Assembly: GCA_965248265.1 (NCBI GenBank)
Contig: CBDFJF010000001.1
Coordinates: 1,088,001-1,152,000 of the forward strand
Length of the DNA: 64,000 nt
Direction of reading: 5' to 3'
DNA from: Candidatus Latescibacterota bacterium
GTDB lineage: Bacteria; Latescibacterota; UBA2968; UBA8231
The notes below the pieces were generated by a model that made no database searches, was not told where the DNA came from, and saw only the letters and a program-made list of their open reading frames with translations. Positions within the stretch are counted from its first letter, which is position 1; every line of letters begins with the position of its first letter. Of the stretch, positions 3,292-56,589 are shown in pieces. A program made the position numbers and the translations under genes.

Positions 3292-4062
3292 TCATTCGCC
3301 CAGGTATTCAACACGGATGCTGTCCACTACTCCATCCGCCCTCAATTCGTCCAGCGCTTTGGTCAGTGGGTCCAGCACATTCGCGTCCGTAGAGAGATGA
3401 AACGCGTAGCCCATGTGGGACTCCTGTAAAATGAAGACACTCTCGTACTGTCCCGGATCAATGCCAGCACGCACGAAGCGATGCCTGGCAACGTCCTCAG
3501 CGTAAGCGATGGCCGTTACCTTACCTGTGCTCAACATCTTGATCATGTTCCCGGGGAAATGATTCCTGCGAATCGCTTCTTTCTTGACTCCCTCGGTACG
3601 AATCAATTGATCACCGATGTCATCACGCACAACGGCGACGGTCAACAGGTGAAGATCTTCCGCACTGTTGATGACGAACCCCCTGCTCGTATCTGCGATA
3701 ACGGCGACGCGTGTGGGAATTATCGGTCCGACAAACTTGAACTGCTTGAGTCGCTCAGTCGTATAAGTAGTTGAGAACAGTGCTGTTCCTGGCTTTTCCA
3801 GCACCTGCTTGTAGCCCAATGCCCATGGTAGGACCTTGATGTCCCCACGCTTCAGTCGGACACCGACCTTCTTGAACATGAGCATCAGGATGTCTACGGT
3901 GATCCCCTTCAACTCGCCATCCTTCTCGTCCACATAGTTGTAGGGAGGGTACTGCTCGGTCATCCATTGGGTAGCCTCGATCTTCCGCGCGATTTCCTCG
4001 GGCGAGAGCGCCATTGACTGGCTCGTCAGCACGAGTACCAGCAGTGCAATTGTCTTTGTCAC
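3292..4062 (-). CDS. Periplasmic solute-binding protein, family 3
   Basis: TEQYPPYNY, GITVDIL, LPW, ALDELRADG motifs. Signal-like N-terminus from GTG 4062 with purine-rich RBS; the ORF extension to 4302 looks spurious. Confidence 0.85.
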   Translation of the reverse strand: MTKTIALLVLVLTSQSMALSPEEIARKIEATQWMTEQYPPYNYVDEKDGELKGITVDILMLMFKKVGVRLKRGDIKVLPWALGYKQVLEKPGTALFSTTYTTERLKQFKFVGPIIPTRVAVIADTSRGFVINSAEDLHLLTVAVVRDDIGDQLIRTEGVKKEAIRRNHFPGNMIKMLSTGKVTAIAYAEDVARHRFVRAGIDPGQYESVFILQESHMGYAFHLSTDANVLDPLTKALDELRADGVVDSIRVEYLGE

Positions 4063-4305
4063 CGTGAGCCACCCTTCAGCGTGATGAGGAGGCACTGCAG
4101 CCGGATCCCCTGGCTGGGTCGCGTTCGCACTCCCCTTAAGTAGAACCATACTCTCTCGGTGGTCGCGGCACCAGAACCGTGATTGCCTCCGTGAGCTTGT
4201 CGAGTAACTGCCCACCCGACACCATTGTCCTGGAAGGTGCCCCCAGACTACCTTTAGGCCCGATGGGAGATACCATACATATTCGCTCCCGAAGGAGTAC
4301 AAGCA

Positions 4306-5388
4306 ATGTCTGACCGCGGCACCCCAACAGCGGACATATTGATCGTCGATGACACGTTAGCCAACTTGCGTCTGATGACAAGCATGTTGAGCGAGTCCGG
4401 CTACAAAGTTCGTGGGGTGCCAGATGGTGCGATGGCGCTCACTGCGGTTGCCAGCTCGCCTCCTGATCTGATTCTCCTCGACATCAATATGCCACAGATG
4501 AATGGATTCGAAGTCTGCCAGCGCCTGAAAGCCGATGAATCAACCGCCAATATCCCGGTCATTTTCATAAGTGCACTCGACGATACCAAGGATAAGGTAA
4601 ATGCGTTTACCGAGGGCGGCGTCGATTACATAACAAAACCCGTACAGGTGGAAGAGGTTCTGGCTCGCATTGAGACTCACCTGAATTTGAGAAGACTCCA
4701 GCATCAACTTCATCAGACGAATGAAGAACTAGAAAGCAGGGTCGAAGCACGCACAGCGGAACTGAAAACAACGTTAAAAGAGCGCGAGGTGCTGCTGCAG
4801 GAGGTTTACCACCGTGTCAAGAACAACATGCAGATCGTCTCCAGTCTTCTGGACCGCGAGTTAGATCAAATTGAAGACCCAGTCGCCCAGAATGTCCTGC
4901 AACAGACGCAGAGCCGCATTTACTCGATGGCGCTGGTGCATCAAGAGCTGTATCAATCCGGTGATCTGGCCGAGATCAATCTCGAGTCATACCTGTCGAG
5001 CCTCTCCTCCACCCTCTTCCAGTCCTATGGGGTTGATGAAGGCAGAATCGCCCTGGTCATTGACGTGGAGGATGTGACCTTCGACGTAGAGACGGCCATC
5101 CCACTTGGGTTAATCGTCAACGAGCTTGTTTCTAACGCGATCAAACATGCATTCCCCGATGACCGTCAGGGCCAGATTTCTATCGACTTCCATCGGACTG
5201 AACAGCATCAAGCCTTGTTGACGGTTAGCGACAACGGTTCCGGATTCGATGGAGCATTTGACGGGTTGCAATCGAAATCACTCGGACAACAATTGGTAAG
5301 CGATCTGACTCACCAGCTGGACGGAACCTTGGAAATTCGCAGCGACGAGGGTACCCAGTTCACGATCCGACTACCTTTAAGCGAGTAA
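4306..5388 (+). CDS. REC - HisKA_2-type histidine kinase
   Basis: Receiver (IVDD...LLD...KP), H-box [12 protein letters not shown]-box NELVSNAIKHAF, DNGSG. AAGGAG RBS. Confidence 0.92.
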   Translation: MSDRGTPTADILIVDDTLANLRLMTSMLSESGYKVRGVPDGAMALTAVASSPPDLILLDINMPQMNGFEVCQRLKADESTANIPVIFISALDDTKDKVNAFTEGGVDYITKPVQVEEVLARIETHLNLRRLQHQLHQTNEELESRVEARTAELKTTLKEREVLLQEVYHRVKNNMQIVSSLLDRELDQIEDPVAQNVLQQTQSRIYSMALVHQELYQSGDLAEINLESYLSSLSSTLFQSYGVDEGRIALVIDVEDVTFDVETAIPLGLIVNELVSNAIKHAFPDDRQGQISIDFHRTEQHQALLTVSDNGSGFDGAFDGLQSKSLGQQLVSDLTHQLDGTLEIRSDEGTQFTIRLPLSE

Positions 5389-5405
5389 GCGAAGGAGTAC
5401 CCCGC

Positions 5406-6356
5406 ATGGAAAAGACCCGGATACTGGTCGTTGAAGATGAGATTCTGGTGGCACGAGACCTTCAATCCAAGTTGCAGCGCACCGGCTACGACGTCCCCGA
5501 AATCGTCGACACCGGGGCCGGGGCCATCGACATGGCATCGGCACTGCAGCCCGGCCTGGTGTTGATGGATATCAGGATTAAAGGGAACATCGATGGGGTT
5601 GAAGCGGCCGAGCGCATCCGCGAAACACACAGAATTCCGGTGGTGTACCTGACTGCCTATGCCGATGACGCCACGGTCGCGAGAGCCAAGCTCACGACCC
5701 CATTCGGATATATTCTGAAGCCGTTCCAGCTCAAGGAGCTGAAAACGACCATCGAAATCGCGCTCTACCGCCATGAGATGGAAAGCGCCCTGCATGATGC
5801 CCACGCCAAGCTGGCGCGGCAGGTCGCCGAACTCGATGCGCGAGATCGACTCGTCCACTTCCAGATGTCCGGCCCAACCATGGCGCAGGCCTGGAGCCAG
5901 ATACTGGTGGTTTTCGACGAGGTTTTCCCCGCTCAGTTGTCCATGGTCTATTGGCCCGACGATAACAATGCCGTGCTTGAACCGGTTGCCGAATTCGAAA
6001 ATGACACTGAAACCGGCCCGGATGATGGAACGAAAGCAGCATTGTCTGTCGACGACGAAACACTGGTGGCCCAGGTTTTCCGGCAGGCTCAACCTCAAAG
6101 AGATGAAGCCGGAGACGAAGTGGCGGTGCCGATTGTATATCGTGACACGGTTATGGGAGTGATCTGGACTCGGAATGCGACCAAGGATGCCGTGATCGAT
6201 GATGACGTCGTTAACTCTCTGTGGCGCCTTGCCCAGCAAGCCGCGTTGCTACTCAGAATGGCCCGCGTTGGCGAGGATCTAAGCAGCGGCAACCTCGGCG
6301 TGAGTGAGCTCATCGCCCTCGCCTCTGGAGAGATCGATGGCCAAGAAGAGGAGTGA
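5406..6356 (+). CDS. Response regulator REC + coiled coil + GAF-like domain, no recognisable output domain
   Basis: VEDE, LVLMD, YLTA, KPF. C-terminal AVPIVY..VMGVIW..LWRLAQQAAL is GAF-like. AAGGAG RBS. Confidence 0.85.
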   Translation: MEKTRILVVEDEILVARDLQSKLQRTGYDVPEIVDTGAGAIDMASALQPGLVLMDIRIKGNIDGVEAAERIRETHRIPVVYLTAYADDATVARAKLTTPFGYILKPFQLKELKTTIEIALYRHEMESALHDAHAKLARQVAELDARDRLVHFQMSGPTMAQAWSQILVVFDEVFPAQLSMVYWPDDNNAVLEPVAEFENDTETGPDDGTKAALSVDDETLVAQVFRQAQPQRDEAGDEVAVPIVYRDTVMGVIWTRNATKDAVIDDDVVNSLWRLAQQAALLLRMARVGEDLSSGNLGVSELIALASGEIDGQEEE

Positions 6357-8583
6357 CTCCTCAAAGAAGCGGCATCTGGAGGAGACATCCAAGGCGCTGA
6401 TTGAGGAACTGAGCGACGAGGTCGGTAGCGTCGAGGAACCAGACGTTTCGTCGACGGATTCTCACCTCAGGGGATCCTTCGAGCGCACGGAGGCAGACCC
6501 CCAGGCTCGTTGGATCGCTGCCGGGTTGGGCTTGCCCGTCGAAGACCTTACGACCGACATTGCGGGCGAAGAAGCCGGCGATGACGCCGGACGCCTGTTC
6601 TATTTCCTGCCGCTGGGTGAAGCCAAGCTGGGCATCCGTTGGGACGCCCAGCGGGCCTATGTCATCTGGGAGAAGGATGTCAGGGATGAGTCAACACTCA
6701 CCTCTTTGTTGCGGGAATGTCCGATTGCATTCAACGAAACAGCCAACTTGGCGGGCGTCGGTCTGTCCACTGTGTCAGGCTCTACCCCGTGGATTTTGGT
6801 CTCCGAAGGTTCAGAACCGAAGGCCGCCAAATCCGAACCCATGGTGGTTACCAGTCTGAGTGATACAGATCCGGCTGACCTCGGGGTCTTGCGTGTAATG
6901 TCGACGCGACTGGCCCGGATTTTCGGTGAGGACAGTTTGGAACCGGACGCGCTCGATCATATTGAGGCGGTTGCGATCAGGCCGAATGAAACCGTCGCCC
7001 GCTCGGTGGTCACGCACGAAGGTAAAGCGGGATACGACATATTCGGCCGTGAAGTAGCGCCACCGCTGGACATGGGCGATGCACAGGTGCAGGTGGGGCC
7101 GAATCTCCTGGTGACAGCCGAAGGCGATTTCACGGCCATCGCCTACGGTTATCTCTGCTTATTGGGCGACCAGCTCTCCGTACTACCGCCTGTGTGGATC
7201 GACCCGGAGTGCATGCACGCGTACTGGCTCGTCCTCGACACCCGCGCCCACCCCCTGATCCCGGAGATGGTTCAACAGAACCTGGATGCTCTGGGAATCA
7301 ATTCCGGCGTACTCACGGACGCCATCGGCGAACTCGCCGAGGCGACATCCACGGGTCAACAGAAAAAAGCAGCGCACCTCGTTGCTCAAGGCCAGCCAAC
7401 CATTGAAGGTGAAGAGGCGCAATTCGAAACCCTCGTGGACGCGGAACGTCGCGTCGGCACCGAGAGAGAAGATGGATCCGTCGACTTCCATGAGATCAAC
7501 TACGCTCCGAACGCGGCACGCGGGCAGGCCGTGGCCTGTCGGACACCACTCGTCGAGGGCACCCACGGTTTCACCGTTAAAGGGACACATCTTCCCTGCC
7601 GCCGCATCGATGATTACCCCGTGCAGGCCGGCAAGAACGTCCGCGCTGAGACCAAAGATGAAGTCGAATACTTTTTTGCCGAAACCGACGGCTTGGTGCA
7701 ATTCAATGACGGTGTGCTGTCGATCGTCGAACTCCTCGTCATCGACGGCGACGTCGCGTTCTCGACCGGCAACCTGAGATTCATAGGCGAGGTTTTCATC
7801 GACGGGTCGGTCATTCAGGGATTCTCTGTGAAGGCAGGCGCGAACATTACAGTCACCGGAACGGTGGAGCCGGGAGCGACAGTGATGGCGAAAATGGACA
7901 TCACTATCGGCAAGGGCATCGTCGGTCGTAAGACGAAAATCCGTGCTGGTGGAAACCTGCGGGCACAGTTCGTCCAGGAAGCGGACGTTCGCGTCGTCGG
8001 CCACATCCAATTAGGCAACTACGCCTACCACGCCTCGCTCCGCGCCGGCGGCATGGTGTCGATCGCACAGGGCAAAGGGGGTAAGGGTGGCAGCATCATG
8101 GGCGGCGAGACCTGGGCCAGGACATTCATCGAAACCTACACGGCCGGGGCGCGAAACGGCACGGAGACGTCGCTGGTCGCAGGGTTGATCCCGGAGCAGG
8201 CAATGGAGCTGGACCGTCTGGATCGCAGCCTTGAGGCGACGGGCGCCCACATGGAACAGATTCTCGAACGGCTCGGACTTCCCTCCCTGGACGTAGGGCG
8301 TTTGCGTAGTCTGTTAAAGGCAGCCACGGGGCCCCAGAAAAACCTGTTGATCACGCGGACGAAGCAGCTCGGGGAGTTGGCCAAAGCACATCAAGAACTG
8401 ATGGCGAAGCGGGGGGAACTGCTGGCACAGCAGGGCCCGTCAGCGGAATTGGCGGAGATCCGTATCCGGGATAGAGCGCACACCGGCACTACCATACGGA
8501 TCGGGGATCAACAGAGAAAACTCATCTCGGAAGTAAGCGCACCGCGCTTTCACCTCAAGAACGACGAAATCGTAGAGCGATAA
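6337..8583 (+). CDS. FapA/DUF342 family protein with long N-terminal extension
   Basis: DGSVDFHE, GKNV, IDGDVAFSTGNLRFIGEVFIDGSV..GF.V.A.G.I.V.G beta-helix repeats, coiled coil, GTTIRIG tail. ATG 6337 follows GGAGAG. Confidence 0.85.
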   Translation: MAKKRSDSSKKRHLEETSKALIEELSDEVGSVEEPDVSSTDSHLRGSFERTEADPQARWIAAGLGLPVEDLTTDIAGEEAGDDAGRLFYFLPLGEAKLGIRWDAQRAYVIWEKDVRDESTLTSLLRECPIAFNETANLAGVGLSTVSGSTPWILVSEGSEPKAAKSEPMVVTSLSDTDPADLGVLRVMSTRLARIFGEDSLEPDALDHIEAVAIRPNETVARSVVTHEGKAGYDIFGREVAPPLDMGDAQVQVGPNLLVTAEGDFTAIAYGYLCLLGDQLSVLPPVWIDPECMHAYWLVLDTRAHPLIPEMVQQNLDALGINSGVLTDAIGELAEATSTGQQKKAAHLVAQGQPTIEGEEAQFETLVDAERRVGTEREDGSVDFHEINYAPNAARGQAVACRTPLVEGTHGFTVKGTHLPCRRIDDYPVQAGKNVRAETKDEVEYFFAETDGLVQFNDGVLSIVELLVIDGDVAFSTGNLRFIGEVFIDGSVIQGFSVKAGANITVTGTVEPGATVMAKMDITIGKGIVGRKTKIRAGGNLRAQFVQEADVRVVGHIQLGNYAYHASLRAGGMVSIAQGKGGKGGSIMGGETWARTFIETYTAGARNGTETSLVAGLIPEQAMELDRLDRSLEATGAHMEQILERLGLPSLDVGRLRSLLKAATGPQKNLLITRTKQLGELAKAHQELMAKRGELLAQQGPSAELAEIRIRDRAHTGTTIRIGDQQRKLISEVSAPRFHLKNDEIVER

Positions 8584-8585
8584 CC

Positions 8586-9380
8586 ATGAAACGACTTTTG
8601 GCGGTGATCGTGTTGCTCTCATCCTCGGGATCGCTTGGCCAGACATCGCCCGAATTGCTCGAGAAGATCGACGCGATCGACTGGATGACCGAGCAATACC
8701 CTCCTTTCAATTACGTCGATGAAGAAGACGGACAGTTGAAAGGTATTACTGTCGATATCCTGGTGGAGATGTTTAAGAAAGTCGGCGCCAAGACGACGCG
8801 TCAGGACCTCCGAGTCCTACCCTGGGCGCGCGGCTACAAGGCGCTCCTCGAGAAACCAGGCACCGCACTGTTCTCGACGACCTATACCTTCGAGCGACTT
8901 CAGCAGTTCAAGTTCGTGGGACCTGTAATACCAACGCGGGTATCAGTGATAGCCGACGCCACTAGCAAGATCGACGCCTTGGACGACCTGAACGAGTTGA
9001 AAATAGGTACTGTCAGAGACGACGTAGGTGATCAATTGATTCGCACCTTGGGCGTAGCCGATAGGGCGATCGAACAAAGCCATTCGGCGTACAATCTGGT
9101 ACAGATGCTTGCCAAAGGCAGGCTCGATGCCATCGTCTATGCGGAGGATATCGCGCGCTATCAGTTTGCCCGAGCGGGAATCGATTCAAGGCGGTATGAG
9201 ACAGTTCTTGTGCTGAAAAACTCACACATGGGATATGCCTTTCACAACTCCACTGACCCTCGAGTCCTCGAACCGCTGCGCAAATCGTTGGATGAACTCA
9301 GGGCAGATGGCACCGTCGACCGAATCTATTCCAGCTACATCAGAAGCTTGAATGCCGAGAGGCAAGGATCACATAAATGA
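8586..9380 (+). CDS. Periplasmic solute-binding protein, family 3 (close paralog of 3292-4062)
   Basis: Signal peptide. WMTEQYPPFNYVDE..GITVDIL..PGTALFSTTYT shared with the 3292 protein. Confidence 0.88.
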   Translation: MKRLLAVIVLLSSSGSLGQTSPELLEKIDAIDWMTEQYPPFNYVDEEDGQLKGITVDILVEMFKKVGAKTTRQDLRVLPWARGYKALLEKPGTALFSTTYTFERLQQFKFVGPVIPTRVSVIADATSKIDALDDLNELKIGTVRDDVGDQLIRTLGVADRAIEQSHSAYNLVQMLAKGRLDAIVYAEDIARYQFARAGIDSRRYETVLVLKNSHMGYAFHNSTDPRVLEPLRKSLDELRADGTVDRIYSSYIRSLNAERQGSHK

Positions 9381-9396
9381 TACTGATTACTCCGTG

Positions 9397-10338
9397 ATGT
9401 GGCGGGTGCTGGTCACCGCCGTTTCGCTGTGCATGGTCACGTCGGTGGCAGCAGATGAACTGGCAACCATCTATGGCAGTTTCCGCCCAGAGGTTATCGG
9501 TCGCTTCCCGGAAGCTGGGGACAACACGCGGTTGATGGACGACGGCTATTCTCGCGTCGGCGTCAAGGGACAGACCGAGTTATCGAACACACTCCAGGGC
9601 TTTTACAAGTACGAGCGTCGCGTGTCGGCCAACGACGGCGAAGACGATGGCGCTGTGCGTGGGGACAACAACGAGCTGCGCGAGGTCCATGTCGGTCTCA
9701 GCGGCCCTCTGGGCTCGTTGTCGATGGGACGCCACTACGGCCTCTACTACGACTATGTCGATGACGAGTTGGACCGTCACCGAAGCCACTACAGTGATGC
9801 CATCGTCTTCGGTGACCTGTTCGTATCGAACGCGCTCAGTTACCGCTCACCTGAGTTCGCGCTCGGCAACTTCGGGGTTCTCGTCGAATTCAACGATGCA
9901 GACAACCAGGGAAAATCGATAGACGAGCGGATTGAGCTGGCTGGCACACTGCGCCACGGGGCGGGCACCGTGCACGCTGGCTACGTCAGTTCCCCGATCC
10001 ACGAGGGCTTGTACGGTGTCGCCGCTTCGTACGACTATCGCCAGGCGCGTCTGGTCGGGGTATATCAGGCGATCGAACGAGCTGGAGGCGCGGAGGAAAC
10101 CCTCGCGAGCCTGGCTCTGGATGCGAAAATCGACTCCGACCGTTCTGTCCGCGTGGCTCTCACGTCAAAGCGAGACCAGGACGACTCAAACCTGGATCAG
10201 CTATTCGTCATCGTCGGCGGCGACCACCGCTTTTCAGATCATGTTCTCGTCTTCGTTGAGGTCTTCCGAAAATCTACCGAGCGCACACAACCACAAGACG
10301 AATCAACCTTGATCGGTGGAATTCGTTTCGATTTCTAA
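9397..10338 (+). CDS. Gram-negative porin
   Basis: Signal peptide, TIYGS, SRVGVKG, REVHVGLSG..GSLSMGR, C-terminal GIRFDF ending in Phe. Confidence 0.85.
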   Translation: MWRVLVTAVSLCMVTSVAADELATIYGSFRPEVIGRFPEAGDNTRLMDDGYSRVGVKGQTELSNTLQGFYKYERRVSANDGEDDGAVRGDNNELREVHVGLSGPLGSLSMGRHYGLYYDYVDDELDRHRSHYSDAIVFGDLFVSNALSYRSPEFALGNFGVLVEFNDADNQGKSIDERIELAGTLRHGAGTVHAGYVSSPIHEGLYGVAASYDYRQARLVGVYQAIERAGGAEETLASLALDAKIDSDRSVRVALTSKRDQDDSNLDQLFVIVGGDHRFSDHVLVFVEVFRKSTERTQPQDESTLIGGIRFDF

Positions 10339-10429: not shown

Positions 10430-11257
10430 TCACTTCGCGGACGAGTCAGGTGAGGCATGGAGGCCGTACACGGCGCGCAGTTGAGCCATCTGCCCGGTAG
10501 TCTCCATGTGACGGATGCCTGAGTTGAAGATATCCCTCAACTCATGACCGAGTTTGCTCTTGGGGAACATCATATAGAAAGGCGTTAAGCGCCCACCCGG
10601 AAGCTCGTCATATGAGAGGTCGTACTCACTTAGCATGGGTTTGCCGATCGAGGAGAATCCGCGTATGATTTCGCAACGTTCTGGTACCAGGTCGCATCGA
10701 CCGCGTTCCAATTTCTGGCCCAACGCGTTGTTGTCTTTGGAGAAGGCGGCGATGTCACTGGGTGCTAATCCGAAGTCGTCATGGTAGTTGTACCCCACGA
10801 GACCGCATACGCTTTACTGCTTGAGATCGTCTTGCCCTTTGATATCGAGGCCATCGGGATGGTGCCGCTTGGCGTAAAAATAGCACGGCGTGGTGTAGTA
10901 ATAAGGATGAGACATCAGGTAGTTCTTTGCTCTTTTCGGGCTATATGACGCGTTGAGGAGTCCGTCGATGCGCTGTCCGTTTTCGACTTCCCGAAGACAT
11001 CGACTCCACGGCATCAGCTCTACCTGAAGTCGGATGTTGTGGGCAGCGAATACCTCGGTCGCGACATCGACGGCGAACCCGACGATTTCAGCTTTGTCCG
11101 TGCTGTCAGACCGATTGAAGTAGGTGTAAGGAGGCCATTCGAGACCGTCGTCGCAGAGACGCACGAGTCGACCTCGAAGCGAAGATGACTCCTCTCCAGT
11201 CAGGAGTTGCGCACTGATGAGGGTCGAAGCCACAAGGATCAGGCCGAGTTTGTTCAC
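10430..11257 (-). pseudogene. Family 3 solute-binding protein interrupted by one in-frame TAA
   Basis: ORFs 10814-11374 and 10430-10798 are in the same frame: ...DDLKQ*SVCGLVGYNY..., stop at 10814-10816. EWPPYTY and MPWSRCL motifs. Confidence 0.82.
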
Positions 11258-11338
11258 AACAGCTTCCCCAGTTTCAGTTCCGATGATGTGTGAAAACATA
11301 CACCGAACGCCCGCGTGCCCCAGCTTCGAGCACCGAGG

Positions 11339-13543
11339 ATGACGGAAGTGGACCACACTACTGCCAATCAGCAATCAGTGAACCCGACGGAATCGAACGT
11401 CAGTCGCAGTATAGCTTTTCGCTTCGGCCTGGCCCTTACGGCGGTCGTATCACTGAGCTTGATCCTGTTCGCTGGCGTTCTCCTCGGTATAGACGTGGTC
11501 CGCAGCGAACAGACGCTCCAGACCAAGCTGGCCAATGCATTGCGTCAGGGCCAGACCAGTTTGGCCGAACCTCTATGGAACGTGGACTCAGACACCGTCC
11601 AACGATTCATCGAAGCAATGATGCTGGACGCCTCGCTCGCATCGGTGACGGTTACGGATGAGGCCAAGGGCGTCGTCGGCCAGGGACGCACGGCGATTGA
11701 GCTCGGTCCGACGCAGCTGCTCACGGGTTCGGTTCCGATCAACTACAATGACACGTTGGTGGGTGAGATCGAGGTGGCCATCTCCAGAGAGGCTCTGGAG
11801 AGCGAGCTGGTGCAGAGGATTGCAGGCGTTCTCCTGCTGACCCTTTTCATTGTCGTGGCGATATCCGCCACAGCGATAGCCTTAACCCGCCGCTACATCG
11901 CCCGCCCATTGTTGAATCTGGAAAATTGCGCCCGCGCCATCGCCGGTGGCGACCTCGAGGTTGCCGTCGACACCAGCTCCGGAGACGAAATCGGCAGCCT
12001 CGCCAAGAGCCTCAATATCATGCGCGCGTCGATCAGGGACCTACTGTCGGCATTGCGCGACAGCAATAAGTCCCTCGAAGACAAGGTCATGGACCGAACC
12101 AACCAGTTGGAGCGGGCTGTCGAGCACGCCGAAGAGGCCCGGGCCCGGGCGGAAGCGGCTAACGTCGCCAAGAGCACGTTTTTGGCCAACATGTCGCACG
12201 AGCTCAGAACACCCCTCAACGTTATTCTTGGATTCGCACAGCTGATGCGTCGTGACCGCGAACTAATTCACAACCACGGCGACACACTGGAAATGATCGA
12301 GAACAGCGGCGCACACCTGCTCACCCTGATCAACGACGTCCTCGACGTCTCAAAAATTGAAGCCGGCCGGCTGACACTCGAAACCGAAGCCGTCGACCTC
12401 CATGATTTGTTGAATGACATCAGAGAGATGTTCGAACTCAGAGCCGCGGAAAAAGATCTGGATCTTGCCGTCGACATTGAGAACGTGGTTCCTCGTTTTG
12501 TCAGAATCGACAAGGGCCGGGTCCGGCAGGTGCTCATCAACCTGGTTGGCAACGCCATCAAGTTCACCACGTCGGGCCACGTCAAACTCCGAGTGGACGC
12601 GTCTCCCGAGGAGTCTTCGGTGCGGCTGGCGTTCGAAATCGGGGATAGCGGCCCAGGCATGTCTTCCGAAGAACTGAACACATTATTCGAACCGTTCATT
12701 CAGGGTGAAGCCGGACGCCAGGCTCAGCAGGGAGCGGGTTTGGGGCTGCACCTGAGCCGGAAGTTCGTAGATCTCATGGGAGGCGATCTCCAAGTCAACA
12801 GCCAGCTAGGGATCGGCTCCACCTTTCAGTTCGAGATCCTGGCGCAGCGTGAAGAGGCTGGCTCAGTCGTAGCGGTAGTCGAAACGCGAAAAGCTGTCAG
12901 CCTCGCCCCGGGCCAGTCCCGGCGACGCGTGCTGATTGTAGAAGACATGCCTGAGAGCCGGATCCTGCTGTCCACCTTCATGAAAGACCTGGGCTTTGAG
13001 ACACGCACGGCAAGCAATGGCCAGGAGGCTGTGGAGATCTGGGACGAATGGCAACCGCATCTGACATGGATGGATATTCGCATGCCTGTGATGAACGGTA
13101 TTGAGGCCACAGAGCGAATCAAGGCGCATCCACGAGGTGGACAGACGAAGGTCATTGCCTTAACGGCCAGCGTGTTCCAAGATGAACGAGAACGCATCCT
13201 GGGCCACGGTTGCGATGACTTCGTGCGCAAGCCCTTTCGCGAGGAAGAGCTTGTCGGCATGCTTGAGAAGCATCTCGATCTGCGGTTCATCTATGTCGAT
13301 AGCCCAAAAATCCCGGAGGAGGAGGTTGTGCTCTCGAATCAGACCCTAAGCCTGCAGGGGCTTAGCGGTGAGTGGATCGACGAGCTGCAGGCCGCAGCGC
13401 GTGGCGCCGACGCCGACAGAATCTACGAACTGCTGGAGCAAAGCCAGACACAACACTCCGATGTTGCTGGTGTCCTGGCCGAATTGGTTCACGGATTCCG
13501 GTTCGACGAGATCTTGAGGCTGACCGAGAAGGAACGCATCTGA
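11339..13543 (+). CDS. Membrane hybrid histidine kinase (2 TM, HAMP, HisKA, HATPase, REC)
   Basis: DEIGSLA HAMP, FLANMSHELRTPLN, NLVGNAIKFT, GAGLGL, WMDIRMP receiver. Confidence 0.93.
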   Translation: MTEVDHTTANQQSVNPTESNVSRSIAFRFGLALTAVVSLSLILFAGVLLGIDVVRSEQTLQTKLANALRQGQTSLAEPLWNVDSDTVQRFIEAMMLDASLASVTVTDEAKGVVGQGRTAIELGPTQLLTGSVPINYNDTLVGEIEVAISREALESELVQRIAGVLLLTLFIVVAISATAIALTRRYIARPLLNLENCARAIAGGDLEVAVDTSSGDEIGSLAKSLNIMRASIRDLLSALRDSNKSLEDKVMDRTNQLERAVEHAEEARARAEAANVAKSTFLANMSHELRTPLNVILGFAQLMRRDRELIHNHGDTLEMIENSGAHLLTLINDVLDVSKIEAGRLTLETEAVDLHDLLNDIREMFELRAAEKDLDLAVDIENVVPRFVRIDKGRVRQVLINLVGNAIKFTTSGHVKLRVDASPEESSVRLAFEIGDSGPGMSSEELNTLFEPFIQGEAGRQAQQGAGLGLHLSRKFVDLMGGDLQVNSQLGIGSTFQFEILAQREEAGSVVAVVETRKAVSLAPGQSRRRVLIVEDMPESRILLSTFMKDLGFETRTASNGQEAVEIWDEWQPHLTWMDIRMPVMNGIEATERIKAHPRGGQTKVIALTASVFQDERERILGHGCDDFVRKPFREEELVGMLEKHLDLRFIYVDSPKIPEEEVVLSNQTLSLQGLSGEWIDELQAAARGADADRIYELLEQSQTQHSDVAGVLAELVHGFRFDEILRLTEKERI

Positions 13544-13546
13544 ATC

Positions 13547-16500
13547 ATGATCAAAGATTTTACTGACATCTTGTGGGTGACGATCTGCGCAGGACTCGTG
13601 TTCCTGATGCAGGCCGGATTTCTGTGCCTCGAAACCGGGCTCACCAGGAGCAAGAACAACATCAATGTCGCGATCAAGAACCTCAGCGATCTCGGCATAT
13701 CGATCGTCCTGTTCTGGGGTTTCGGATTTGCCCTCATGTTTGGTACGACTCACGGCGGCTGGTTCGGATCGCAGCAATTCGTTCCCGATCTTGGGCAGGC
13801 CGGGATGTGGACGGTCGCCTTCTTGCTGTACCAGGCCATGTTTTGCGGCACAGCGATGACGATCCTATCGGGAGCGATCGCCGAGCGCATGCGTTTCAGC
13901 GGCTACATCCTCTCGGCCATCATAGTCTCTGGACTCATCTACCCGGTGTTCGGACACTGGGCCTGGAATGGTGCCGACGTGGGCCAACAACTGGGGTGGC
14001 TGAACAGCCGCGGATTTGTCGATTTTGCCGGAGCCACCGTCGTTCACAGTTTTGGCGGTTGGGTCTCCCTCGCCCTGTTGTTCGTGATCGGTCCTCGCTC
14101 AGGCCGCTTTGCGGCGGAGGGTTCCACGCGCCAGATCCCGGGCGCGAATCTTCCCCTCGCCACCCTCGGCGTCATCTTGCTCTGGCTCGGTTGGTTCGGA
14201 TTCAACGGCGGCAGCACGCTGGGCATGGATGAGCGCGTACCCCGAGTCATCACCAATACGATTTTCGCCGGCGCTTCTGGCCTGGTGACCGCACTGGCAG
14301 CGGGTTGGATTTTCAGAGGTCGCGCCGACGTTCATCTGGTCATCAACGGCTCACTGTCCGGGCTCGTAGCCGTAACAGCGGGTGCCCATGCCGTGACGAC
14401 CCTGAATGCCATACTCATCGGTGCCGGCGGCAGCGTTGCCATGATTTTGGTTGACTATCTGATGCTGCGGCATCGCGTGGACGATGCCGTTGGTGCCGTT
14501 CCCGTCCACCTCGGGGCCGGTATCTGGGGCACCCTGTCACTGGCCTTTTTCGCAGATCTCGGGGCCCTGGGAACGGGTCTGGATCGTTGGGAGCAGTTCC
14601 AGATTCAGGCTATCGGGGTCCTGGCCTGCGGGGTGTGGACCTTCGGGCTTGTCACGATTCTGTTTCGTCTGATCAACCGCTGGTTCAAGTTTCGCGTTTC
14701 AGCGCAAGACGAGCACGTCGGCCTCAACGTCTCCGAACACGGAGCCAGCACCGATCTGCTCGATCTTCTGGACACCATGGACCAGCAGGCGCAAACCGGT
14801 GACATGAGCATGAAGATGCCGGTGGAGCCGTTCACCGAGATCGGTCAGGTCGCCAAGCACTACAACGAAGTGATGGAAGCGCTCCAGAAGACGGTGGCGC
14901 GTACCGAGGGCATCGTGCGCACGGCGATGGACGGTATCATCACCTTTTCTAGAGACTCGCTCTCCATCCTGTCCATCAACCCTGCTGCTGAGGCGATGTT
15001 CGCCTGTTCCGGGCCCGCCGTTGTCGGCGACTCTATCGACAGGTTTCTCGACTCCGAGTCTGCGCAGTCAAACCTCCGATCCAACATCACGTCCATGGTA
15101 AAATCTGGAGTGGCCCGGCGTGTATCCGGTAGGCGTAACGGGGACTCTTTTCCGATGGAAGTCGCGGTCGCTGAAGTGGAAGCAGGTGATGAGGGCTTCT
15201 ACGTCGGTATGTTTCGGGACATGACGGCGCTACAGGAGAGTGAAGCACGCTATCGGAACCTTTTGGACAACATCCCGATTGGCATCTATCGCAACACTCC
15301 AGGGCCCGAAGGCAAGCTACTCATGGCCAATGCAGCTTCGGCAAAGATTTTCGGTTACGACTCCGTGGAGGAATACCAGCAGCAGGACACGAGCTCAAGC
15401 TACAGAAATCCGGAGGAACGCATCGCTTTTTCCGACCGTCTGATCGAGGAAGGCGAGGTTACGGGAGTGGAGCTGGCCTTGCACAAGCAGGACGGTACGC
15501 CGATATGGGTTGCCATCTCGGCGCGCACCATCTACGACGAAAAGGGAAACGTAGCCTACTTCGACGGCATGATCGAGGACATTACCGTGCGCAAAGAGGC
15601 AGAGGATGCCCTGCGTGCGGCCAAGGAGGCTGCTGAAAGCGCCAATCTCGCCAAGAGTACCTTCCTCGCGCGCATGAGTCACGAATTGCGCACGCCCTTG
15701 AATGCCATTCTCGGTTACACGCAGCTCATGAGTCTCGACCGGGGCACGCCACCGCAACACGTGGAGAGCCTGGAGATAGTCGGTCGAAGCGGCGAGCATC
15801 TGCTGGCGTTGATCAACGACGTGCTGGACATGTCTAAAATTGAAGCCGGGCAGGTCGAGCTCAACGAATCCACTTTCGATCTCCATCGATTGTTGGAGGA
15901 TCTGGAGGACCTTTTCCGCGTCAGTGTCTCTGAAAAGGGATTACAGCTGGTGTTTGAACGCCAGGCAGATCTGCCTACTCTGGTATCAACTGATGAGGGC
16001 AAGTTGCGTCAAGTCTTGATCAACTTACTTGGAAATGCCACGAAGTTCACGGTGGAGGGCAGAATCGTTTTGCGCGCTCGAGCGAGACACGACGTGGAAA
16101 ACCTGCGTCTCTACTTCGAGGTCGAGGATACGGGACCCGGTATCTCTGAGGACGATCTGGTGGAGCTGTTCGATCCCTTCGTGCAGATCGAGCACAAGGG
16201 TGGGGCTCAAGAGGGTACAGGGCTGGGCCTGCCGATCAGCCGGCAGTTCGTCCGTATCATGGGAGGCGAGATCACCGTCGACTCCGAGCTTGGTAGCGGC
16301 TCCACATTCAAATTTGACATCGCGACCGGTGTTGGCGAGTCCATAGTTCATCCAGCCTCGCCTCCAGCGCGGCGCGTGCTGGGCCTTGAGGATGGTCAGA
16401 TTCCACGGCGAATACTGGCTGTCGATGACCAGCCTGAGAATGTCCAGTTGCTCCAAGCCATCCTGGAGCGGATCGGATTTGAAGTCCGTGTCGCCACCAA

Positions 16501-17032
16501 CGGCAAGGAAGCGGTGGATGTGTGGGCGGATTGGGAGCCACACCTCATATGGATGGACATCCGCATGCCGGTGATGGATGGCCTTGAGGCCACTCGCAGG
16601 ATAAAGGCATCCCCCCAAGGTCAATCGACCGTCATCGCCGCGCTCACCGCCAGTGTCTTCGAGGAAGAGCGCGCTGAAATCCTGGCCACTGGCTGTGATG
16701 ACTTCGTGCGTAAGCCGTTCACCGAGACGGAGATTCTCGATGTCATCGAGCGCCATCTCGGTGTGAAATTCGTGTACGATGAAAGCGGAGTGCCACCACA
16801 GTTGGGATTGGGTGATCAGGTGTTTGGGGAACAGATAGCTAAGCTGCCCCCACTGTGGATGAATGAAATGCATGGCGCTGCGGCTCAAGCAGATACCGAG
16901 GTGGCGACGACGCTGCTGGGACGGATCGAAGGCGACCATCCAGAAATCTTTCGAACGCTGACAACACTCGTAGGGGAATTCCGTTTCGCCGAGATCATGG
17001 CGTTGACGGAATCCGGGGCTGATGGATCGTGA
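13547..17032 (+). CDS. amt: Ammonium transporter (Amt) fused to PAS-PAS-HisKA-HATPase-REC
   Basis: MQAGF.CLE.G..R.KN, GAIAER, DFAGATVVH, WFGFNGGS, DDAVGAVPVH, then two PAS domains, SHELRTPLN, GTGLGL and a receiver. Confidence 0.93.
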   Translation: MIKDFTDILWVTICAGLVFLMQAGFLCLETGLTRSKNNINVAIKNLSDLGISIVLFWGFGFALMFGTTHGGWFGSQQFVPDLGQAGMWTVAFLLYQAMFCGTAMTILSGAIAERMRFSGYILSAIIVSGLIYPVFGHWAWNGADVGQQLGWLNSRGFVDFAGATVVHSFGGWVSLALLFVIGPRSGRFAAEGSTRQIPGANLPLATLGVILLWLGWFGFNGGSTLGMDERVPRVITNTIFAGASGLVTALAAGWIFRGRADVHLVINGSLSGLVAVTAGAHAVTTLNAILIGAGGSVAMILVDYLMLRHRVDDAVGAVPVHLGAGIWGTLSLAFFADLGALGTGLDRWEQFQIQAIGVLACGVWTFGLVTILFRLINRWFKFRVSAQDEHVGLNVSEHGASTDLLDLLDTMDQQAQTGDMSMKMPVEPFTEIGQVAKHYNEVMEALQKTVARTEGIVRTAMDGIITFSRDSLSILSINPAAEAMFACSGPAVVGDSIDRFLDSESAQSNLRSNITSMVKSGVARRVSGRRNGDSFPMEVAVAEVEAGDEGFYVGMFRDMTALQESEARYRNLLDNIPIGIYRNTPGPEGKLLMANAASAKIFGYDSVEEYQQQDTSSSYRNPEERIAFSDRLIEEGEVTGVELALHKQDGTPIWVAISARTIYDEKGNVAYFDGMIEDITVRKEAEDALRAAKEAAESANLAKSTFLARMSHELRTPLNAILGYTQLMSLDRGTPPQHVESLEIVGRSGEHLLALINDVLDMSKIEAGQVELNESTFDLHRLLEDLEDLFRVSVSEKGLQLVFERQADLPTLVSTDEGKLRQVLINLLGNATKFTVEGRIVLRARARHDVENLRLYFEVEDTGPGISEDDLVELFDPFVQIEHKGGAQEGTGLGLPISRQFVRIMGGEITVDSELGSGSTFKFDIATGVGESIVHPASPPARRVLGLEDGQIPRRILAVDDQPENVQLLQAILERIGFEVRVATNGKEAVDVWADWEPHLIWMDIRMPVMDGLEATRRIKASPQGQSTVIAALTASVFEEERAEILATGCDDFVRKPFTETEILDVIERHLGVKFVYDESGVPPQLGLGDQVFGEQIAKLPPLWMNEMHGAAAQADTEVATTLLGRIEGDHPEIFRTLTTLVGEFRFAEIMALTESGADGS

Positions 17033-18651
17033 GCAATCCAAAGGGCGATGTTCTCATCGTCGACGACACCTTACCCAACCTGCGATTCCTGACCACCATG
17101 CTCAGTGATCAGGGATTCAAGGTGCGCGGAGTTCCCAGTGGGGCAATGGCCATCACGGCTGCCACTTCAGCTCCTCCAGACTTGATTCTTCTCGATGTCA
17201 ACATGCCTGAGATGAACGGGTATGAAGTCTGCGATAGATTGAAATCAGAACCACTGACGGCTGACATTCCAGTCATATTCCTGAGTGCCCTGTCCGACAC
17301 GCTGGACAAGGTAAGGGCGTTCGAAGCCGGCGGCGTAGACTATATCACTAAGCCCTTCCAGCTCGATGAAGTCCTCGCCCGGGTTGACAGTCATCTGTCC
17401 GTGCGACGTCTGCAGGAGCAGTTGGAGCGATCGAATGAGGACCTCGGCCGTCGCGTTGAGGAGCGCACAGCGGAACTAACACAGGCCATTGCCCTGTTGA
17501 AGGAGCAGGTGGCGGAGCGTGAGCGCGCCGAGGCCGAGCGTGCCAAGCTCGAATCTCAGCTCCATCAGGCAGGGAGAATGGAGGCGCTTGGCCGCCTGGC
17601 CGGGGGCGTCGCTCATGATTTCAACAATTGGCTCACGGTGATTTCAGGGTACGCGGAAGTGCTTCACGATGTTAGCCAGGACGACGAAGCCATCCAGGGC
17701 GCCGCGCGTATCCAGCGAGCCGCGGCGCGGGCTGCTGAGTTGACGAAGCAGTTGCTTGCCTTCAGTCGGCAGCAGGTGTTTGAGCCTACTGTGCTTGATC
17801 TGAACCAAGTGGTGTGCAGTGCCGAAGAAATGCTGCAAAGGCTTCTCGGCGACAACATCAAGGTGATCCTGGACCTCGCCCCAGAATTGGGAAAAGTCAG
17901 ATCCGACGCCGGCCAACTGGACCAGGTAATCCTGAACCTCGCCATCAATGCCCGCGACGCCATGCCCAAAGGGGGCGAAATCACCCTGCGAACCCGCAAC
18001 AAGGGTGACTCCTACATCACTCTCGAAGTGCGGGACGTAGGCGTCGGCATGGACGCAGAGACTCAGGCCATGATCTTCGAGCCCTTTTTTACCTCCAAGG
18101 AGCTCGGCAGGGGCACCGGCCTGGGTCTTTCCACCGTACACGGTATCGTGACTCAGAGCGGTGGGAAAATCCAGGTAGATAGTGCACCAGGTACAGGTGC
18201 GGCGTTCACCGTCTACCTACCCCGGGTGGACGATTCGGTGCAGGTAGCGAAATCGTCCTCAGGCGAGATCAGCAGCGTGTGCGGTTCTGAGACGATCATG
18301 GTTGTCGAGGACGAGGAAGACGTACGCGACATGATCTGCGAGCTGCTTCGATCTCAGGGATATTCTGTGCTGGCGGCAGAGAACGGAGCTGAGGCATTGC
18401 AGGTTTGGGAACGCCATGAAGACCCCGTCCACATGCTGCTCACGGATGTTGTGATGCCTTCAATGGGCGGGCCAGAGTTGGCTGACTGGCTGGCACCGCT
18501 GCGCGCACAGATGAAGGTGGTTTTTATTTCTGGCTACCCGGGAGACGATGCGCTGCAGAACCTCCTGGCAAAGTCGGATTTTGCTTTTCTACCCAAACCG
18601 TTCACGCGTACTGCATTGCTAACCAAGGTTCGGGAGAGTCTGAACAGCTAG
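17029..18651 (+). CDS. REC - histidine kinase - REC hybrid (CckA/NtrB-type H-box)
   Basis: LAGGVAHDFNN, NLAINARDAM, GTGLGL, receivers at both ends. GTGA overlap with the amt fusion. Confidence 0.92.
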   Translation: MSNPKGDVLIVDDTLPNLRFLTTMLSDQGFKVRGVPSGAMAITAATSAPPDLILLDVNMPEMNGYEVCDRLKSEPLTADIPVIFLSALSDTLDKVRAFEAGGVDYITKPFQLDEVLARVDSHLSVRRLQEQLERSNEDLGRRVEERTAELTQAIALLKEQVAERERAEAERAKLESQLHQAGRMEALGRLAGGVAHDFNNWLTVISGYAEVLHDVSQDDEAIQGAARIQRAAARAAELTKQLLAFSRQQVFEPTVLDLNQVVCSAEEMLQRLLGDNIKVILDLAPELGKVRSDAGQLDQVILNLAINARDAMPKGGEITLRTRNKGDSYITLEVRDVGVGMDAETQAMIFEPFFTSKELGRGTGLGLSTVHGIVTQSGGKIQVDSAPGTGAAFTVYLPRVDDSVQVAKSSSGEISSVCGSETIMVVEDEEDVRDMICELLRSQGYSVLAAENGAEALQVWERHEDPVHMLLTDVVMPSMGGPELADWLAPLRAQMKVVFISGYPGDDALQNLLAKSDFAFLPKPFTRTALLTKVRESLNS

Positions 18652-18844: not shown

Positions 18845-19590
18845 CTACGCAGCCCTGGTCACGACCTTTGGCTGGAACACAGGCCGCAGATCTTTTGGGA
18901 ACAGGTGGCTATATGTCTTCAGCGTGATCGACGGGTTTGCATGGCGCAGCTGTGCGGAGACCTGTACGATGGACGCGCCATCCGCGATCGGCAAGCTTGC
19001 CGTAGTATGGCGGATCTCGTGCGGAGTTCGTGGCTCGATCTCCGCCGACTCGAAGAGCCGCTTCAACTTGTGCGCTTCATTGCGATGCGATAAGGGCGAG
19101 CCATCAGGCTGACACCACATCAGGCCGGTCTTGGGGGACTTTTTCAGGCCGCGCCGGGTGACCTCCCCTTGGCAGTGGAGTTCCAAGGCTTCGACCGTAC
19201 CCGGGGACAATGCGACTCGTCCATCGCGAATTGCCCTTCGGCGAGGCAAGGTGCCATCGCGCACCAGCTGCTCCTGCACATCGTACTGACCGTCTGCCAA
19301 GTGCTCCCACGTCGCACCCAACAACTCTCCCTGCCGTAGCCGGTATCCAACCAGAAGCGATAATGGCCGTACAGGAACGGCTCGTGCGCTTGGAGGTACA
19401 GCAAGGGGAAGGATTCGACTTCCTCCGGGCTCAGTGGCTTCTTGCGGCCCTGTGGGCGGTCGGAGGTTTAGCGAACACCTTGTCGAACGGGTTGCGCACG
19501 ACAAAATCTCTGGCCAAGGCCCACCTAACGAGGTTCTTCAACCGCACCCAGACGTGTTGCACCTGTCCCGCAGCGTAAATCGCCTCACAA
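18845..19590 (-). pseudogene. Tyrosine recombinase/integrase remnant, frameshifted and N-truncated
   Basis: Pieces in three frames: ...VRWALARDFVVRNPFDKV / PLSPEEV..FWLDTG / LRQGELLG..HEIRHT..LRHANPSITLKTYSH (R, HxxR, H, Y catalytic motifs). Confidence 0.85.
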
Positions 19591-19990: not shown

Positions 19991-20770
19991 ATGTGCTGCA
20001 AGATTTTTTCTTGTATTTTCGTTTTCTTGTCAATCAGTTCTTCAAGTTATGCTGAGGGAAAAACCATTAAGATTGCAACCTTGGAGGACTATGCTCCTTT
20101 TTGTATGACTGTGGGAAAATTCCAATCAGATCAGATCATCCCAGTAGGTAAGGATGTTGTGGGATTTTAGGGCTATAGTTGGGATGTCTTAAGAGAAAGT
20201 TTTCATGAAATGGGATACACCATCCATTTGTCAATTACTCCCTGGGCAAGGGCTATGAAGTATGTCAGAAATGGAGAAGCAGACATCCTTTTTCCAGCTG
20301 GGAAAAACACTGAACGAGAAGGGATCTTTGATTATTCTGAAGAACCGGTTAATCAGGCGAATTTCTTGATTTATGTCCGAGTGGATGATCCAATCGAGTG
20401 GGGAGGGTTGGAATCCCTCAAAGGATTAGTAATTGGTGTAAAGCGAGGATTTAATTATGGAGATAGGTGGAAAGCAGCGACAGATATCAAAAAACGTGAT
20501 GTTGGTAAGATTTCAGCTGGGTTTACCATGCTGGCCCAAAAACGGCTAAACGGATTCCTCGGATACGAGCATAGTTGGGACTATGTCCTAAAGCAGGAAA
20601 ATTTGACGGCTAAATATAGAAAACTTCCCGCTTTTGATTCCTCAGCAGAGTATTTAGTAGCACTTAAAGGTAATCCAAAGGGCATAGATTTTCTAGAAGC
20701 TTTTGATACTGGAAAGGAACGACTTAATAAGAGTGGAAAATTAGAGAGCATAATGAGTAAATGGTTCTGA
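19991..20770 (+). pseudogene. AT-rich family 3 solute-binding protein with one in-frame TAG
   Basis: AGGAG RBS, ATG 19991, signal peptide, TLEDYAPF, then GF*GYSWDVL (TAG 20168-20170) in frame with ORF 20210-20770 (PWARA, RGFNYG). Confidence 0.85.
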
Positions 20771-53865: not shown

Positions 53866-53871
53866 GAGTAA

Positions 53872-54819: not shown

Positions 54820-54832
54820 TATATCCTCCAGT

Positions 54833-56573: not shown

Positions 56574-56589
56574 CGCAACAACCATGCCG
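56574..56589 (-). promoter_or_regulatory. sigma54-type promoter of the kinase-REC-FapA operon
   Basis: Minus strand CGGCATGGTTGTTGCG, GG-N10-GC, about 50 nt upstream of ATG 56524. Confidence 0.62.

Follow-up and report, generated by a model that had tools for sequence, protein, structure and literature searches.

Receiver–GAF regulators paired with FapA in one class of Latescibacterota: a candidate phospho-switched input to the flagellar motor

FapA (DUF342) is widespread in flagellated bacteria, and only recently has a clutch role been put forward for it, in which it would disconnect stators and rotor. Here we analyze two gene rows in a 64,000-nt window (the whole stretch of DNA under study) of a Candidatus Latescibacterota genome, in each of which a histidine kinase, a response regulator composed of a receiver, a coiled coil and a GAF domain, and a FapA homolog follow one another. 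Comparison within the window's own genome (G000; 7.3 Mb, 92% complete) and with relatives shows that the conserved unit is the pair of regulator and FapA, not the three-gene row.

Signals that terminate at the flagellar motor are known from CheY/CheA output and from the clutches and brakes EpsE, MotI and YcgR, which act directly on FliM, FliG or MotA. The arrangement proposed below resembles these systems in that a phosphorylation or second-messenger signal ends at the motor, but the receiver–GAF adaptor would act via FapA and in many parallel copies. For FapA itself, the accessible part of a preprint on Borrelia burgdorferi (10.64898/2026.10.14.759253) describes BB0267 as a stator clutch whose solenoid and coiled coil cover the FliG-binding face of MotA; it states that the control of FapA is unknown and that unassigned density adjoins the protein. 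Borrelia and Latescibacterota FapA share the order of FapA_N domains, beta-solenoid and two-helix coiled coil, and both hosts possess MotA/MotB, FliL, FliG and FliM. In contrast to the single Borrelia gene, which lies in the flagellar operon and whose product is anchored by FlcA, G000 has about 12 scattered paralogs, most with a dedicated receiver–GAF gene.

A precedent for a partner switch set by phosphorylation comes from Vibrio FapA, which binds dephosphorylated EIIA-Glc only, according to the available text of PMC6877527. Partner binding in the FapA–EIIA(Glc)–HubP switch of V. vulnificus and V. cholerae reportedly depends on phosphorylation state, as in our proposal; there, however, the partner is a phosphotransferase system (PTS) protein encoded elsewhere and the output is polar assembly, whereas here the candidate is a two-component regulator next door, one per paralog. 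The Vibrio switch was reportedly worked out by Park in 2016 and 2019. In Helicobacter pylori, FapA limits migration and binds PilM (10.64898/2026.10.23.761471, accessible part); it is cytoplasmic, lies near the stators and acts without cyclic di-GMP, and G000 likewise has few GGDEF (6, one strong) and PilZ (3, weak) matches. The H. pylori protein nonetheless represents a divergent subfamily that is unmatched by PF03961 and bound to a PilM cage, and that part of the preprint reports no two-component partner. In the literature searched, with subscription journals and bioRxiv supplements outside its scope, no description was found of a response regulator with a GAF adaptor as its sole output whose copies are each coupled to a paralog of an expanded FapA family. 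The parts are known families, and their wiring is probably an undescribed route of signals straight to the motor.

A conserved regulator–FapA pair with exchangeable kinases

The rows at 4306–8583 (plus strand) and 52057–56524 (minus strand) have the same gene order, and all six open reading frames are uninterrupted, as a sequence-only reading of the window had proposed. The features are as follows, with the basis of each assignment in parentheses.

4306–5388, plus strand: kinase 1, 360 residues; soluble REC–HisKA_2–HATPase hybrid with receiver Asp59, H-box His169, and N and G boxes (Pfam, motifs, hydropathy)
5406–6356, plus strand: regulator 1, 316 residues; REC, long helix, GAF and short acidic tail helix, with phospho-Asp55, Thr83 and Lys105 retained (Pfam, alignment; fold taken from the copy 2 model)
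6337–8583, plus strand: FapA/DUF342 copy 1, 748 residues from ATG 6337 in a frame open from 6304; acidic N-terminal extension, FapA_N, beta-solenoid, coiled-coil hairpin (Pfam)
52057–53865, minus strand: FapA/DUF342 copy 2, 602 residues, no membrane helix; beta-solenoid at about 320–470, helical hairpin at 474–555 (Pfam, structure model, hydropathy)
53872–54819, minus strand: regulator 2, 315 residues; REC 5–118, helix 109–162, GAF 166–295, tail helix 301–311 (AlphaFold2 model, fold search)
54833–56524, minus strand: kinase 2, 563 residues; two membrane helices flanking a putatively Cache-like periplasmic region (the label is a lead only), cytoplasmic linker region, HisKA_2–HATPase (Pfam, hydropathy)

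Profiles bear out the family assignments of the first and third genes. FapA_N (PF20250) and FapA (PF03961) match well over their cut-offs in both rows (128/172 bits in copy 1, 122/171 bits in copy 2), and both kinases match HisKA_2 and HATPase_c in Pfam, with the H-box HRVKNN, the N box and the G boxes present. The copies are 53% identical over 201 residues of the kinase core, 48% over 312 residues of the regulator and 46% over 557 residues of FapA; the shared blocks noted earlier are seen in the alignments. With synonymous sites near saturation as well, this divergence indicates an old duplication rather than an assembly repeat. Kinase and regulator genes are separated by 17 and 13 nt, and regulator and FapA genes by 6 nt in copy 2; in copy 1 the latter overlap by 20 nt if FapA starts at ATG 6337 instead of GTG 6304. 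Shine-Dalgarno-like motifs occur at most junctions of both rows. Both window copies are real, and a third HisKA_2 triad is found elsewhere in the genome (G000:C1:926-931 kb).

A profile of the C-terminal half of the regulator identified eight strong copies in G000, seven of them directly upstream of FapA. With about 12 FapA genes in 7.3 Mb, so many immediate neighbors exclude chance adjacency. The remaining regulator is in a Kai operon, 6.5 kb upstream of FapA; a TonB receptor interrupted by an insertion sequence, a YfiR-like gene and a kinase separate the two. Across 40 relatives, 32 of 37 strong regulator matches (E < 1e-15) lie less than 2 kb before a same-strand FapA_N match, compared to 4 of 29 weak matches; nine FapA_N matches in this count came from outside the genome-wide FapA_N listing, and weaker repeat matches entered it in part. 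FapA is the next gene for 54 of 66 regulator genes of relatives and lies within 2 kb for 57. This set comprises the loci of all 37 strong matches plus a small number of weak ones, together with 25 of the additional matches in the phylum (about 42), with the duplicate L069 and genes below 85 bits dropped. Since many of the genomes are closely related, the counts demonstrate conservation and do not represent independent trials. The regulator family is present in 35 of 168 genomes of the phylum (with at most 19 candidates scored per genome), distributed over four families of one class, and 34 of these 35 genomes have FapA. At one locus (L094), an ABC/GGDEF/REC/GAF frame ends in a regulator-type GAF, and FapA does not come next. 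A single-protein scan of metagenome loci yielded no confirmation.

The kinase, in contrast, is variable, and neither the triad as the conserved unit nor a HisKA_2 kinase as its defining member, both part of the sequence-only reading, withstood the synteny survey. Upstream of the eight G000 regulators are HisKA_2 kinases in three cases, HisKA hybrids in three and no kinase in two. For the 66 regulators of relatives, the upstream gene encodes a HisKA kinase (20), an HDOD regulator (4), a HisKA_2 kinase (1), another receiver protein (6) or something else (26), and nine regulators adjoin a contig end; one of the last 26 has a HisKA_2 kinase behind an insertion sequence, and all HisKA_2 cases fall within one young subclade. 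A fixed HisKA_2–REC/GAF–FapA triad is ruled out by these counts.

Kinases 1 and 2 are alike only in their cores, kinase 1 being soluble with its own receiver and kinase 2 having two predicted membrane helices. The HisKA_2-linked copies, including both window copies, form one clade in the FapA tree (support 0.93) and in the receiver tree (1.0). Receiver class tracks kinase class, in that every HisKA_2-linked copy has an EDE-type receiver and these receivers constitute a single clade (support 1.0). Kinase and cognate receiver therefore appear to have been acquired together once and then duplicated. The best NCBIfam matches of both kinase cores and both window receivers are to PhyK/PhyR, the general-stress pair of Alphaproteobacteria, but cut-offs are missed by far (144/128 bits versus 750 for the kinases, 91/99 versus 240 for the receivers), no sigma-like domain is present here, and the likeness is limited to kinase core and receiver class.

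Within the regulator, the two halves have different histories. Among 38 complete pairs, patristic distances correlate between GAF and FapA (Spearman 0.69) and hardly between receiver and FapA (0.17) or receiver and GAF (0.23). Twelve of 13 GAF splits with support of at least 0.95 are common to the FapA tree and none conflicts, whereas two receiver splits do. From copy to copy, kinase and receiver domain change whereas the GAF half stays with FapA, so that kinase and receiver look like swappable inputs on a fixed GAF–FapA output. In seven between-genome pairs, the ratio of nonsynonymous to synonymous substitution rates is below 1 (0.07–0.30 for regulators, 0.06–0.55 for FapA).

Regulator architecture and predicted contact with FapA

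Both window regulators match Response_reg in Pfam and retain the acidic pocket, phospho-Asp, Thr and Lys; among 38 aligned regulators, the phospho-Asp is present in 34 and the Lys in 37. An AlphaFold2 model of regulator 2 (predicted local distance difference test score, pLDDT, 89) consists of the receiver, an unbroken helix at 109–162, the GAF domain and a short tail helix, and its best fold match is the REC–GAF part of a dual-sensor kinase (PDB 6OAQ; E 2e-14). The REC–GAF architecture read from the sequence was confirmed by Pfam for the receiver; the GAF domain is under the cut-off in copy 1, has no match in copy 2 and is above the cut-off in paralogs. Its fold is upheld in the window regulators by the AlphaFold model, the fold search, profile searches and those paralog matches. 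The chain ends after the GAF domain and tail helix, which supports the earlier statement that it contains no domain for DNA binding or enzymatic output.

The dual-sensor histidine kinase (PDB 6OAP/6OAQ/6OB8) resembles the regulator model in receiver, long helix and GAF domain. Its helix leads into a kinase, whereas the Latescibacterota regulator stops after the GAF domain and shows no conserved pocket residue that stands out; the GAF domain of the kinase binds a bilin. Among 37 sequences, conservation in the C-terminal half of the regulator peaks on the helix preceding the GAF domain (0.66) and reaches its minimum mean in the pocket region (0.27), and none of the conserved ligand-pocket residues of sensor GAFs stands out, although paralog-specific ligands may exist. 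With the pocket least and the pre-GAF helix most conserved, an adaptor role fits better than that of a single-ligand sensor.

FapA copy 2 is modelled with a C-terminal beta-solenoid followed by a two-helix coiled coil, and hydropathy predicts a soluble protein. Its complex with regulator residues 122–315, predicted in one job with 37-row alignments, scored 0.39 versus 0.00 for the best of three controls, which weakly favors contact; the runs agree in at least 97% of contacts, with a partner pLDDT of at least 78. Among solved pairs, 116 of 157 attain the mark set for this score, as do 2 of 215 mismatched pairs; of these, only 18 solved pairs and both mismatches lie at 0.60 or below. A fold search of the PDB copy with FapA returned nothing at E ≤ 0.001 and no FapA-like solved structure, so the prediction is unlikely to be a memory of a similar complex. 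Taken with the gene coupling, it makes a direct interaction between regulator and FapA fairly probable. The co-inheritance and the weak prediction also render plausible the suggestion of the sequence-only reading that FapA may be the effector of a phosphorylation pathway.

FapA paralogs, flagellar setting and neighboring genes

G000 has 11 FapA matches to PF03961, plus a frame with FapA_N only. A tree built from 82 FapA cores has its 56 paired copies spread across a class-wide radiation, with unpaired copies nested among them and deep nodes weakly supported; this nesting suggests that the pairing is old and was sometimes lost. A 384-residue solenoid frame accompanied by two short frames (L019:8809-10630) is one such nested copy with no regulator and probably a decaying one. 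An unpaired subfamily of 900–1000 residues forms a separate clade across genomes. Other copies carry an N-terminal DUF3391-like domain (L012:9026-11422 and L112:6410-7093 by Pfam, L016:9752-12133 by alignment). A locus titled Proteobacteria (L070) nests in the same FapA clade and may reflect transfer or a mislabelled bin.

In outgroup families of the phylum, 20 hand-chosen loci show FapA proteins of 460–500 residues in one to three copies. Three loci have them in a CheZ–FapA–receiver row, and in two the gene is part of the flagellar operon and precedes a receiver gene; longer copies follow a CBS gene (three loci). The rows recorded in other families of the phylum are as follows.

L114, L119, L121: CheZ-like gene, FapA, single receiver
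L116-L118, L130: CBS-pair gene, FapA

From these associations, the tie of FapA to small signalling proteins predates the GAF adaptor. Further paralogs also accompany such partners, in CheZ–FapA–receiver, CBS–FapA, Usp–EIIA–FapA and FapA–HDOD rows. A Usp–Usp–EIIA (PTS_EIIA_2) gene lies immediately upstream of a FapA paralog in two genomes (L079:11383-14176, L128:5418-9359); the G000 FapA that follows such a gene is a frame without a solenoid match. The rows recall the Vibrio EIIA–FapA switch, but the EIIA family differs. HDOD genes adjoin FapA at L017, L028, L038, L040, L108, L109 and L113, and a local profile detects about 19 HDOD-domain frames in G000.

That the window is devoid of motility genes had hinted at a FapA detached from motility, but the genome does not bear this out. 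The G000 flagellar cluster encodes FliE, FliF, FliH, FliI, FliJ, FliK, FlgD, FlgE, MotA, MotB, FliM, FliO, FliP, FlhB, FlhA, FlhF and a sigma factor, and FliL is present too; there are 10 Flagellin_N matches, one FliP and one MotA/MotB stator pair. An absence of motility genes from the genome is thus ruled out; PF20560 missed MotA, and PF01618 located it next to MotB. Nearly all 35 genomes that carry the regulator family have FliG (FliG_N in 34), and 30 have FlhA, one as a weak fragment only. FlhA is found in none of nine single-contig relatives without the family, and relatives without flagellar genes likewise have no regulator–FapA pairs. In a set of 41 genomes, FliG_C occurs in all 20 with FapA_N, nine of which have no CheW match. 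FapA usually belongs to flagellar superoperons, according to the available parts of PMC11607428 and PMC13277936, a placement seen in outgroup families of the phylum (L122, L123) but not in the scanned G000 cluster.

Chemotaxis genes are few in G000: one CheW match, within a CheA hybrid, and two methyl-accepting chemotaxis proteins were found, and no match to CheR or to a stand-alone CheW was obtained in this 92% complete genome. Overall, the cell has a complete-looking flagellum, a single type of stator and a diminished chemotaxis complement. A minimal chemosensory row at G000:C1:2,059,000-2,063,700 (L081) contains a methyl-accepting chemotaxis protein, a small open reading frame, a CheA–CheW–REC hybrid and a single receiver. 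The flagellar operon has no fliG between fliF and fliH (G000:C2:4,115,000-4,117,700, L074; L082-L088), and at least seven full-length orphan FliG paralogs of 347–418 residues are scattered elsewhere, three of them nearly identical; all five that were scanned have N, M and C domains. FliG_N has nine matches in G000 and 1–11 per genome across the class, versus 1–2 in outgroup families. Variants of FliG_C include a fusion to an adenylate/guanylate cyclase-like domain (L090:3913-5037), a tandem repeat (L089:4481-5194) and an occurrence within a 562-residue protein of no other family (L080:10659-12344).

A sigma-54-type -24/-12 match lies on the minus strand at 56574–56589, 65 nt upstream of kinase 2, as a consensus match only; about 110–140 nt further upstream is a short direct repeat. 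Similar boxes precede flagellin, flgF, flgN and the flgB/C region in the same consensus scan. No promoter common to all modules was seen: 13 FapA-related upstream regions gave this one sigma-54-type match, against a background of 0.054 per 430-nt window, and one sigma-28-like match, and a sigma-70/terminator scan of copy 1 gave a result at or below chance.

Module 1 is surrounded by four family-3 solute-binding-protein genes at 3292–4302 (minus), 8586–9380 (plus), 10430–11374 (minus; apparently broken into two frames) and 20210–20770 (plus), and a porin gene lies at 9352–10338. At 13547–17032 (plus), between hybrid kinases at 11315–13543 and 17029–18651, an ammonium transporter is fused to PAS–PAS–HisKA–HATPase–REC; this cluster, 2.7–10 kb downstream of module 1, may be an input to the kinase 1 receiver. 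It is followed by a short phage-integrase-like frame at 18845–19504 (minus).

A proposed phospho-switched adaptor and its alternatives

Since FapA is presented as a stator clutch in the Borrelia preprint, these observations are best read as an adaptor, switched by phosphorylation, through which each regulator would gate its own FapA at the motor. The receiver of the regulator would be phosphorylated by the upstream kinase, which is of HisKA_2 type in the two window copies and a HisKA hybrid elsewhere, and the resulting change would run down the long dimer helix through the GAF domain, which here would serve as an adaptor rather than a conserved ligand sensor. The GAF domain or tail would bind its own FapA paralog in one phosphorylation state, either keeping FapA off the motor or delivering it there, and FapA would work at the MotA–FliG interface as in Borrelia, so that stators are disengaged or re-engaged. 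Each regulator–FapA pair may then represent a separate handle on swimming for one sensory input. The steps from kinase to FapA draw on anatomy, conservation and the weak prediction, and the motor step is borrowed from the Borrelia preprint. For the full chain ending in motor output, the case for and the case against appear about evenly balanced.

Several results weigh against this reading. For nine of the 66 regulators, one of them at a contig end, no FapA lies less than 2 kb away, and no REC/GAF–FapA fusion occurs among 67 FapA homologs of 411–1309 residues; searches for fusions among longer proteins and with representatives also found none, as weak negatives because multi-GAF kinases dominated the matches. 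The complex score falls in a range where, by the tool's own rating, most predictions are wrong unless the interaction was already likely on other grounds. Operon co-duplication by itself yields congruent trees, and an approximately unbiased test, run on 5000 replicates (too few by the program's own standard), rejects the FapA topology for both domains, with log-likelihood differences of 57 for GAF and 305 for the receiver; only relative congruence is therefore claimed. No FapA lies in the scanned parts of the G000 flagellar clusters, and the single-contig, 100% complete genome G107 (five FapA, two regulators, FliG and nine flagellin matches) keeps its regulator–FapA pairs though it gives no match to FlhA, FliP, MotA or MotB. 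Finally, FapA affects assembly in Vibrio, limits migration in Helicobacter and acts as a clutch in Borrelia, which is why the output step counts as borrowed.

The same phospho-switched partnership could instead control flagellar assembly, number or polar placement, as Vibrio-type FapA does, rather than act as a clutch once the motor is turning. Loss of fapA leaves V. vulnificus without flagella and EIIA-Glc displaces FapA from the pole (10.64898/2026.10.23.761471, accessible part), the sigma-54-type box of copy 2 resembles those of several flagellar genes, and G000 has no FlhG-sized open reading frame between FlhF and FliA, so that control of flagellar number may be rerouted. A dozen paralogs with separate sensory inputs would nevertheless suit fast, graded tuning better than one-off assembly, and the only structure places the conserved C-terminal domain, retained in the FapA copy 2 model, on MotA; we regard the assembly output as rather unlikely. 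Somewhat less likely again is that regulator and FapA are co-expressed and co-duplicated without contact, the regulator having another target or being a phosphate sink or a GAF-gated modulator of neighboring kinases. Co-duplication would explain the congruent trees, several FapA genes have lost their regulator just as some regulators have no FapA nearby, copy 1 sits amid many hybrid kinases, and no fusion was found. However, kinase and even receiver were repeatedly replaced while the GAF–FapA adjacency held in four families, a kinase modulator would be expected to stay with its own kinase, and the complex score is weakly positive, with all three controls at 0.00.

It is improbable, in our estimate, that the expanded FapA (and FliG) paralogs are cytoplasmic signalling scaffolds off the motor, with one housekeeping FapA still flagellar. 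The scattering of FapA and FliG genes outside the flagellar cluster, the fusion of FliG_C to a nucleotide-cyclase domain, the separate clade of 900–1000-residue unpaired FapA proteins and the retention of pairs without stator genes in G107 and G008 would fit such repurposing. G008 has no FliP, MotA or MotB, but compared to its congener G021 (L134-L135 versus L136-L138) its flagellar operon carries two clean deletions, which may be a recent loss or an assembly gap: one of about 13 kb runs from the fliP region into fliI and takes in motAB, fliM and flgE, and the other removes about 3 kb from within fliF to flgC. G107 in turn still has its flagellin matches and a FapA in pieces, and relatives that lack flagellar genes lack the pairs as well.

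The loci name a concrete candidate controller of FapA and offer many natural cognate and non-cognate pairs for studies of specificity; since the three proteins of copy 1 are predicted to be soluble, in vitro work is possible despite the uncultured organism. More generally, the loci suggest a path from two-component kinases to the motor that needs neither CheA/CheY nor cyclic di-GMP. On a broader and more tentative view, which would make the receiver–GAF protein the first signal input identified for the FapA clutch, one class of Latescibacterota might possess a distributed motor-control network largely apart from chemotaxis, in which up to a dozen FapA clutch paralogs, each with its own adaptor (receiver–GAF, CBS, Usp–EIIA or HDOD) wired to swappable kinases and even to a Kai clock, would target one kind of stator together with a rotor for which several FliG paralogs, with genes lying away from the flagellar operon, could serve as building blocks.

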